Shown here one piece after another: positions 38,823-39,447 of a DNA stretch of 64,000 nucleotides (the first letter of the stretch is position 1; each line of letters begins with the position of its first letter). The stretch comes from a virus. The notes under the pieces were generated by a model, which was not told where the DNA came from, searched no databases, and was given only the letters and a program-made list of their open reading frames with translations. Position numbers and translations under genes: made by a program. The stretch lies in IMG/VR virus record IMGVR_UViG_3300045988_078326. One strand, given 5' to 3'.

Positions 38823-39447
38823 CCTTGAAAATAGAATAACTTAGATATGGCTATAATGCAACTCAGTGAAGACACAACGTCATGTGGCTGAGAAACCCAA
38901 TCCGAGCTTAGGCTGGGAGAATCGGATAATGGAGGATACCCCAACCATCCGTAATGGGCTTTAATGGTGACATTAGAGTTCTCGTGGTCGAATGACCGGC
39001 TCCTAGGAGGGTTGTGCTGACATAATCGCATCTAAAAACACTGTCTTATCGCTCTCGCAATAGACGCCCCTGTGGGGAATAATCCAAGTTAGGTTAAAGT
39101 GTGGCAACTTTGGCAATCCTTGGAAATGCCAACAAGAGAGTTTGCACTTGAACCAGAGAAATCTGGGTATAAGATAAGGTCATGATCTGAGTAGCCCAAA
39201 TGTGCAAAGACTTTGATGATTAGATAATAAGATATTGCTTGTTCTAAAATCAAATTTCTGAATGACGGGTGAAAGGTAAGGGTAATCAATCCCTTTTGAG
39301 AAATGGAACAAAAGTTCTGGGGCAAGAAGTTAGAGGTCGCTCCTCGAAGCTCAGACTTGTCTCCTCAATGGTTGAATATAGATGAAGATTAAACAGTTGG
39401 TAGGGCGAAGGCCCGCATTATAGTTATATCTAAGTTATTCTATTTTC
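38823..39447 (+). ncRNA. about 620-nt ORF-free highly structured RNA closed by a 22-bp terminal inverted repeat (GAAAATAGAATAACTTAGATAT / ATATCTAAGTTATTCTATTTTC); candidate large ornate ncRNA of the ROOL/GOLLD type
   Basis: IR at 38827-38848 and 39426-39447 are exact reverse complements; no ORF of 60 aa or more in the + frames; flanked directly by tRNA-Gln(UUG) and tRNA-Gln(CUG); contains many internal hairpins. Confidence 0.45.

Follow-up and report, generated by a model that had tools for sequence, protein, structure and literature searches.

Positions 38827–39447 (+) of a viral DNA stretch of 64,000 nucleotides (nt), taken from the IMG/VR record IMGVR_UViG_3300045988_078326 and called the window in the following, are very probably the gene for a ROOL RNA (Rfam family RF03087), a family of large non-coding RNAs found in phages and in Firmicutes. 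The Rfam model matches positions 38838–39433 on the plus strand, and on this strand only, over all of its 574 positions (1–574), with a score of 350.3 bits and an E-value of 3e-80, compared with a gathering score of 99.1 bits. The conserved blocks of the family agree with the consensus line, namely CAGUGAAGA, GGAUAC, CAAUAGACG, AAUAAUCC, GUAUAAG and AGUAGCCC, as well as UUCUGAAUGA-GGGUGAAA, GGUAAUCAAUCC, GCUCAGACUU and GUAGGGCGAAGGCCC. Canonical pairing in the register of the model is found for 133 of the 159 consensus pairs, including 16 of 16 in the closing helix P1, and at least one run of apparent mismatches disappears when the register is shifted by 1 nt: the free-energy fold recovers a perfect 8-bp helix there (GGGGCAAG with CUUGUCUC). 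The unaligned loop of the Rfam model corresponds to a variable linker of 56 nt (39200–39255, +).

A preliminary description of the segment had proposed a candidate resembling either ROOL or GOLLD and had suggested a search with the Rfam covariance models of both families. This search retained the first part of the proposal, as the ROOL model matched end to end, and gave nothing for the second: GOLLD (RF02032) showed no match at its gathering score anywhere in the window, and a permissive Rfam scan of positions 38350–40250 at E ≤ 1 returned only tRNAs besides ROOL, with no GOLLD and no intron. GOLLD is also a large, ornate, cage-forming phage RNA located beside tRNAs and probably works in a similar way, but its sequence and fold are unrelated to those of ROOL. 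The reading of the element as a GOLLD RNA draws on the same kind of genomic setting and on a related contig, L073, which carries both RNAs about 390 nt apart; considering the end-to-end match to the other family, it is practically ruled out. On this contig (Ga0326512_10000717, also IMGVR_UViG_3300032038_000517), the ROOL gene at 5207–5796 (−) scores 327.7 bits and the GOLLD gene at 6185–6652 (−) 173 bits (gathering score 150), both being on the same strand in a tRNA island.

The gene extends beyond the Rfam match, because a 33-nt inverted repeat prolongs P1 to positions 38827 and 39447. The two arms (5′ strand, 38827–38859, +; 3′ strand, 39415–39447, +) have 33 nt each and are 94% complementary, and the full unit of 621 nt with extended P1 is defined by the RF03087 match, the inverted repeat and the strain deletions described below. 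These values agree with the 22-bp perfect terminal inverted repeat and the segment of about 620 nt reported previously, the first 22 nt of the arms being perfect. The exceptions to Watson–Crick pairing in P1 are found at GG 38849–38850 opposite TT 39424–39425, which form G·U wobbles only in an RNA read from the plus strand, and a strain variant at 39430 (C to T) creates a G·U pair with G38844 that is likewise possible on the plus strand only. The predicted folding energies are −207 kcal/mol for the plus strand (z-score −6.8 versus shuffles) and −179 kcal/mol for the minus strand (z-score −7.4). Because both strands fold well below their shuffles, the energy alone demonstrates structure and does not choose the strand.

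The earlier statement that the segment contains no open reading frame (ORF) holds for the plus strand, where the longest ORF encodes 38 amino acids (aa), and fails for the minus strand, which contains mechanical ORFs of 112 aa (38693–39031, overlapping a tRNA gene) and 78 aa (39089–39325). It is extremely improbable that these two frames encode small proteins. Neither gave a Pfam match at E ≤ 0.1, six public assemblies of the phage have no gene call at these positions, their protein-level similarity to other ROOL loci reflects conserved RNA sequence only, and the substitution patterns preserve base pairs.

Relatives of the RNA were found in metagenomes. Searching with a motif of the subfamily yielded 14 metagenome loci with the same core, all of which are full-length ROOLs with 305–360 bits located within tRNA islands. 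Of the 61 IMG/VR loci found with a degenerate ROOL motif, none is closely related, and an exact 30-mer led to one different phage in IMG/VR (L001). A core of 69 nt is 81% identical to an unannotated ROOL of Enterococcus Schiekvirus phages (e.g., EFDG1), where it also lies between tRNA genes; these are unrelated phages, and outside the core the similarity is below BLAST detection. A search of GenBank phages with the ROOL gene and 21 kb around it returned only this core in Enterococcus phages and scattered tRNA matches, the phage itself being absent. Scanning species-representative genomes for the subfamily motif gave nothing, a plasmid search gave only a weak match in Paraclostridium, and a gapped, incomplete copy of the ROOL alignment of Kretsch et al. 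contained no match to this sequence.

Covariation was analyzed by projecting the Rfam structure, whose derivation did not involve these sequences, onto an alignment of 13 relatives. Standard pairs occupied 78.7% of the cells (65.1% in shuffled alignments), 102 of 169 pairs showed changes on both sides (66.9 when shuffled), and the covariation score was 0.399 (0.186 when shuffled); none of 500 shuffles reached any of the three observed values. Sliding the partner columns as a control lowered the covariation score to 0.08–0.16, i.e., by a factor of 2.4–5. P1 itself covaries in the subfamily, with 23 of 31 pairs altered on both sides. The comparison with metagenomic homologues recommended in the preliminary description therefore reveals a covarying structure, and none of the outcomes named there as speaking against the candidate (no model match, no covariation, an intron or a decayed mobile element) was obtained. 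We regard family membership, strand, boundaries, the covariation of the secondary structure and the complementarity of the loop pairs described below as established. As far as sequence analysis can reach, all features that define a ROOL appear to be present, and the element is a new example within the known family which introduces no new principle.

Loops corresponding to contacts in solved cages

The closest structural reference is the env-120 ROOL from cow rumen (PDB 9MDS; Kretsch et al. 2025, PMC12286853), which was solved by cryo-electron microscopy as an eight-chain cage of D4 symmetry with bridges B1 to B6 and a variable linker that is disordered inside. Two further members of the same family are the Efa ROOL (Enterococcus faecalis, 9J3T), an octamer, and the Lsa ROOL (Lactobacillus salivarius, 9J6Y), a hexamer (Wang et al. 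2025, summarized in PMC12990946 and PMC12191101). The env-120 sequence recovered from the supplement comprises 650 nt rather than 659, and its positions were placed by local sequence context. The env-120 RNA shares the Rfam family, the helix plan and the position of the linker with the window ROOL, as well as the conserved blocks CAAUAGACG, CUGAAUGA...GGGUGA and GCUCAGACUU, whereas the primary sequences are largely different. An extra hairpin following the B1 partner is present in env-120 only, and the window ROOL contains a 12-nt insertion at 38908–38919. The sites of B1, B4 and B6 occur at homologous positions and are complementary in both RNAs.

The 5′ partner of kissing loop B1 is provided by C38878–C38881 in the L2 loop ACGUCA (38877–38882, +), homologous to env-120 A38–C41 (Kretsch 2025, Suppl. 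Table 2), and the 3′ partner GACG (39264–39267, +) lies just 3′ of the linker and is homologous to env-120 G465–U468. Compared to AAUC:GAUU in env-120, the CGUC:GACG pairing of the window ROOL keeps two pairs and compensates two; six of the 13 relatives have C-G as the third pair, and five have U-A. The 5′ partner of B4 is the hairpin loop UGGCA (39102–39106, +), which is homologous to env-120 G307–A310 and complementary to UGCCA at 39127–39131 (+), the corresponding env-120 pairing being GGUA:UACC. The MAFFT alignment is out of register in this loop, and B4 was assessed by a register-free count of complementarity with a cross-pair control. In 85% of 20 distinct ROOLs, the loop is complementary to its own partner over 4 nt or more, compared to 22.5% of the cross pairs, and at least eight different complementary sequence pairs occur across these 20 RNAs. 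Taken together, the B1 and B4 columns are 90% paired versus 20–48% when slid. The third contact, B6, connects the half-shells in env-120 (G565:C566′) and corresponds to the self-complementary G39339-C39340 in the UCGCU loop (39337–39341) of the hairpin GAGG-UCGCU-CCUC (39333–39345, +). Judged from their bases, the bridging loop pairs B1, B4 and B6 are complementary as in the solved cages, which is a statement on base complementarity and not on binding.

By analogy to the env-120, Efa and Lsa RNAs, the window ROOL probably forms a closed dihedral cage in a protein-free assembly. In such a cage, the kissing loops B1 and B4 would act within a half-shell and B6 between the half-shells, and the variable linker would be located inside.

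tRNA setting and strain variation

The setting between tRNA-Gln(UUG) and tRNA-Gln(CUG) in a phage tRNA island, as stated previously, was recovered in full. Using ARAGORN, we detected 31 tRNAs and a transfer-messenger RNA (tmRNA) between 29.9 and 48.6 kb, all on the plus strand. The gene for tRNA-Gln(UUG), with an encoded CCA, occupies 38744–38817 (+), and its 3′ end lies 9 nt before P1; that for tRNA-Gln(CUG) occupies 39453–39527 (+), and its 5′ end, the RNase P site, follows 5 nt after P1. The phage gene content around the ROOL gene agrees with the phage or prophage, near-tRNA setting of the family. At other loci, a same-strand tRNA directly follows the ROOL gene in 40 of 58 cases and ends directly 5′ of it in 21 of 56, and the flanking tRNA species differ even between close ROOL relatives. 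The nearest strong σ70-like promoter match upstream (38052–38080, +; TTGAAA-17-TATAAT with TG) is a candidate start of a shared transcript, and the first strong intrinsic-terminator-like hairpin downstream (41527–41555, +) has 12 pairs followed by a T run; both are consensus matches only.

Co-transcription of ROOL with tRNAs was raised as a possibility by Weinberg et al. 2017 (PMC5737381). From the gaps to the tRNAs, the arrangement at other loci and the promoter- and terminator-like sites, we infer as the most economical and somewhat favored model that the ROOL RNA and its neighboring tRNAs would be transcribed as one precursor. RNase P, by cutting off tRNA-Gln(CUG) at its 5′ end, and the maturation of the 3′ end of tRNA-Gln(UUG) would then free an RNA of about 621–635 nt, whose ends would be sealed or protected by the 33-bp P1.

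The ROOL gene is carried by an uncultivated phage of about 145 kb (contigs examined, 87–291 kb; 8 of 10 at 141–149 kb). An AAA ATPase gene downstream of the ROOL gene (40208–41329) is identical in 309–310 index blocks of public assemblies whose sample names fit a human-gut cohort naming convention, and the phage looks common in human-gut-type metagenome assemblies. Among ten strain contexts, six contain the ROOL gene at 97–99.8% identity and four lack it. ROOL-minus strains lack exactly the ROOL block and a few flanking bases: two of them show the junction GCCA-TAT-ACCGC, equivalent to a loss of 38818–39449 (632 nt), a third belongs to a more divergent haplotype with a 3-nt spacer, and strain L092, whose upstream sequence is 100% identical to the window, shows the junction GCCA-CTGT-ACCGC, which corresponds to a loss of 631 nt and has 3 nt of microhomology (ACC) at both edges. 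In L092, the second tRNA-Gln (599–673, equivalent to window 39453–39527) has the anticodon TTG instead of CTG, and both neighboring tRNAs read CAA there. None of the empty sites shows a target-site duplication. Because they keep different flanking bases (CTGT or TAT), independent deletions are likelier than a single insertion, and with at least two kinds of empty junction the ROOL gene is accessory in this phage and has probably been lost on more than one occasion.

A self-splicing intron or a small non-autonomous mobile element whose ROOL-like fold is incidental might also be invoked for such a clean presence/absence polymorphism of 631–632 nt between two tRNA genes, particularly with a 33-bp terminal inverted repeat, with genes for LAGLIDADG, GIY-YIG, PDDEXK and HNH homing endonucleases scattered in the same island, and with close ROOL relatives adjoining different tRNAs. 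We consider this very unlikely. The element lies between two intact tRNA genes and interrupts none, no group I or II intron was matched at E ≤ 1 (38350–40250), and plus-strand ORFs do not exceed 38 aa; the inverted repeat is identical with helix P1 of the RNA, which covaries, and two kinds of empty site lacking a target-site duplication fit independent deletions better. The island as a whole is a mosaic of small cassettes (39939–40128; L063–L066). In some strains, window positions 39939–40085 are replaced by 861 nt with a gene for a 175-aa protein, and a PDDEXK_5 gene of 444 nt is inserted at 40128/40129; LAGLIDADG, GIY-YIG and HNH endonuclease genes occur near 39939–40128.

Where the ROOL gene is present, differences between strains are unevenly distributed. 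Strain L081 differs from the window at 15 positions, nine of which fall into the 56-nt linker (odds ratio 17.8, p = 7e-7), and changes in P1 between strains keep the pairing (G-C to G·U). According to these substitution patterns, the ROOL core is under purifying selection where it is present, yet the gene is accessory.

Several observations weigh against an intact, cage-forming ROOL RNA. Of the consensus pairs, 26 of 159 are non-canonical or gapped in the register of the model. The apical hairpin CCCC-UGU-GGGG (39067–39077, +), which is P7 in the numbering of Kretsch et al. and was taken to equal P10 of Wang et al., has only 4 bp and a 3-nt loop, compared to 5 bp and 7 nt in env-120; its first loop base varies between U, C, A and G among the relatives, and at 39067–39077 there is no bulge partner for the daisy-chain contact B3 like env-120 C263:G272. 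The apical stem of the B3 contact is not always conserved among ROOLs (PMC12286853), and a review that summarizes Wang et al. 2025 attributes the hexameric state of the Lsa RNA to an ultrashort apical stem, a trait resembling the very short one observed here. With such a short apical hairpin, a cage may contain either eight or six subunits. Further points come from the distribution of the gene: it is missing from 4 of the 10 strain contexts, and phages with an ATPase 40–67% identical, represented by contigs binned with Clostridia metagenome-assembled genomes, have tRNA islands in which the 3 kb upstream of the ATPase gene contain no ROOL. This binning hints at Clostridia as bacterial hosts. 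Finally, strain L078 (98.8% identical to the window) carries a 9-nt deletion of 39102–39110 (L078 ~4840–4850), which removes the B4 loop (UGGCAACUU); either the allele is natural and defective in cage assembly, or the deletion is an error of the sequence assembly.

The absence from strain contexts and sister phages and the deleted B4 loop are also what might be expected of a decaying, non-functional ROOL remnant carried in the tRNA island. Such a remnant is improbable, because the score of 350 bits lies within the range of related ROOLs (305–360) with all model positions present, the partners of the kissing loops are still complementary, and the substitutions that separate the strains spare the structured core and accumulate in the linker, and changes in P1 keep the pairing. 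The lack of the ROOL gene in 4 of 10 strain contexts makes it dispensable in this phage, and because it is missing in some strains and sister phages, any benefit would be conditional.

Neighboring elements in the window

Upstream of the ROOL gene and tRNA-Gln(UUG), positions 38612–38736 (+) contain a further structured RNA (z-score of the fold, −3.4) in which modules of a tRNA are permuted. Within a closing stem of 9 bp lie a hairpin, a canonical T-arm (UUCAAAU loop), a 7-bp acceptor-like hairpin, an element resembling a D-arm and a hairpin resembling an anticodon arm (loop CUGAUAA). In a divergent haplotype, all pairs of the acceptor hairpin are changed and the 7 bp are kept (AAAAGCC:GGCUUUU to GGAUCGC:GCGAUUU). 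The element was not called by ARAGORN, and Rfam gave only a sub-threshold half-hit to tRNA (20.7 bits). Its predicted layout is like that of a bacterial or phage YrlA Y RNA or of a circularly permuted tRNA. Bacterial YrlA is a tRNA mimic of about 100 nt that binds Ro60 (Chen et al. 2014, PMC4201824); it likewise is a structured RNA from tRNA and RNA-repair neighborhoods of phages and bacteria, but is unrelated to ROOL and relevant here as a neighbor only. At 39700–39818 (+), a tRNA gene missed by ARAGORN (Rfam 50.9 bits) has normal acceptor, D and T arms and an anticodon arm of 57 nt for 11 model positions, i.e., an insertion of about 46 nt. The insert is kept in all strains of the lineage and has the 9-mer ACAGCAAUU and similar flanks in common with the Y-RNA-like element at 38621. 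The phage tmRNA of the island is encoded at 36227–36542 (+; Rfam 115.7 bits) with the tag peptide DNDYFENYLAA, and tmRNAs are also present at the related ROOL loci L072, L075, L078 and L081.

Stop-codon recoding in gut phages is a known phenomenon. Four frames of the window (2–3761, −; 4121–4951, +; 16863–17684, +; 27779–28813, +) contain 7–14 in-frame TAGs and are free of TAA and TGA, and with TAG read through, single-stretch PHROG matches span the TAGs (FolD, 6e-44; sigma factor, 5e-39; phrog_3314, 2e-57; phrog_15503, 4e-68). As judged from these frames, TAG is a sense codon in part of the genome. The suppressor tRNA(CUA) at 47646–47720 resembles the ROOL-flanking tRNA-Gln(UUG) in its D-arm, U1 and G73, so that TAG is likely read as Gln. 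The genes around ROOL have no in-frame TAG.

Farther downstream, positions 50645–53080 (+) encode an 811-aa protein similar to the major vault protein (MVP), as concluded from a Pfam MVP_shoulder match (8e-18) and a match to the rat and human MVP in the PDB (4e-17 over residues 464–766). Full-length homologues with 38% identity occur in uncultured huge phages of 462–735 kb. Vault proteins in gut Caudoviricetes were described in a 2023 preprint (10.1101/2023.11.10.566534), in which no TEP1 was found by BLASTp. Directly upstream, at 48742–50265 (+), lies the gene for a 507-aa protein with DUF2828 and DUF7788 (phrog_850, 'RNA-binding protein'), the C-terminal part of which keeps a vWA-type MIDAS pattern (D-x-S-x-S ... 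T ... D); no match to solved structures was obtained with the single sequence or a four-sequence profile. In the strain loci, a cREC_REC-domain gene follows the vault-like gene. An RNA ligase gene and then a nicotinamide adenine dinucleotide (NAD)-salvage block are located at 55761–61841 (+), the latter comprising nicotinamidase/isochorismatase, phosphoribosyl-pyrophosphate-synthetase-like, nicotinamide phosphoribosyltransferase and NAD synthase genes. By its gene content, this arrangement fits counter-defence modules of jumbo phages (PMC7824862).

The ATPase encoded at 40208–41329 (+; phrog_2376) was considered as a partner of ROOL and rejected because homologues occur in the Clostridia-binned tRNA islands without ROOL within 3 kb upstream. 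A homologue with 43% identity (L062 4856–5707) follows ROOL and tRNAs in the Enterococcus phage EFDG1. From this distribution, the ATPase goes with tRNA islands and not with ROOL.

Possible role and meaning of the ROOL gene

The literature on ROOL function suggests an encapsulation of the linker, tRNAs or ribosomal parts. For the phage studied here, we tentatively propose, with considerable doubt, that the cage may serve a translation and RNA-maintenance program together with the 31 tRNAs, the tmRNA, the RNA ligase and the Y-RNA-like element, for example as a container or shield for RNA or ribosomal components in the course of an infection. Homologues of the DUF2828-vWA protein (32–36% identity) are encoded within about 3–4 kb of a ROOL gene in three otherwise unrelated loci (L010 8718–10184, L016 5838–7184, L077 30–1073). 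The vault-like and DUF2828 genes persist in ROOL-minus strains, so these neighborhoods demonstrate no dependency. In a rather unlikely reading, ROOLs would be self-contained cassettes of tRNA islands that are repeatedly lost and perhaps gained; a still weaker suggestion is that the cage is tied to an RNA-handling module with a protein partner. If that were true, an RNA cage would work together with a protein, namely the DUF2828-vWA protein encoded beside a vault-like protein.

Very few natural RNAs are known to assemble a closed cage in the absence of protein. ROOL belongs to them, and the copy described here places it in a phage that is apparently prevalent in human-gut-type assemblies. The same phage combines TAG recoding, a tmRNA, a Y-RNA-like element and a vault-like protein with ROOL-plus and ROOL-minus forms. 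Its near-isogenic natural strains, among them a ROOL-minus strain that shares the upstream haplotype and a strain in which the B4 loop alone is deleted, provide comparisons for the contribution of the cage, which could address fitness in time-series metagenomes, metatranscriptomes and assembly in vitro.

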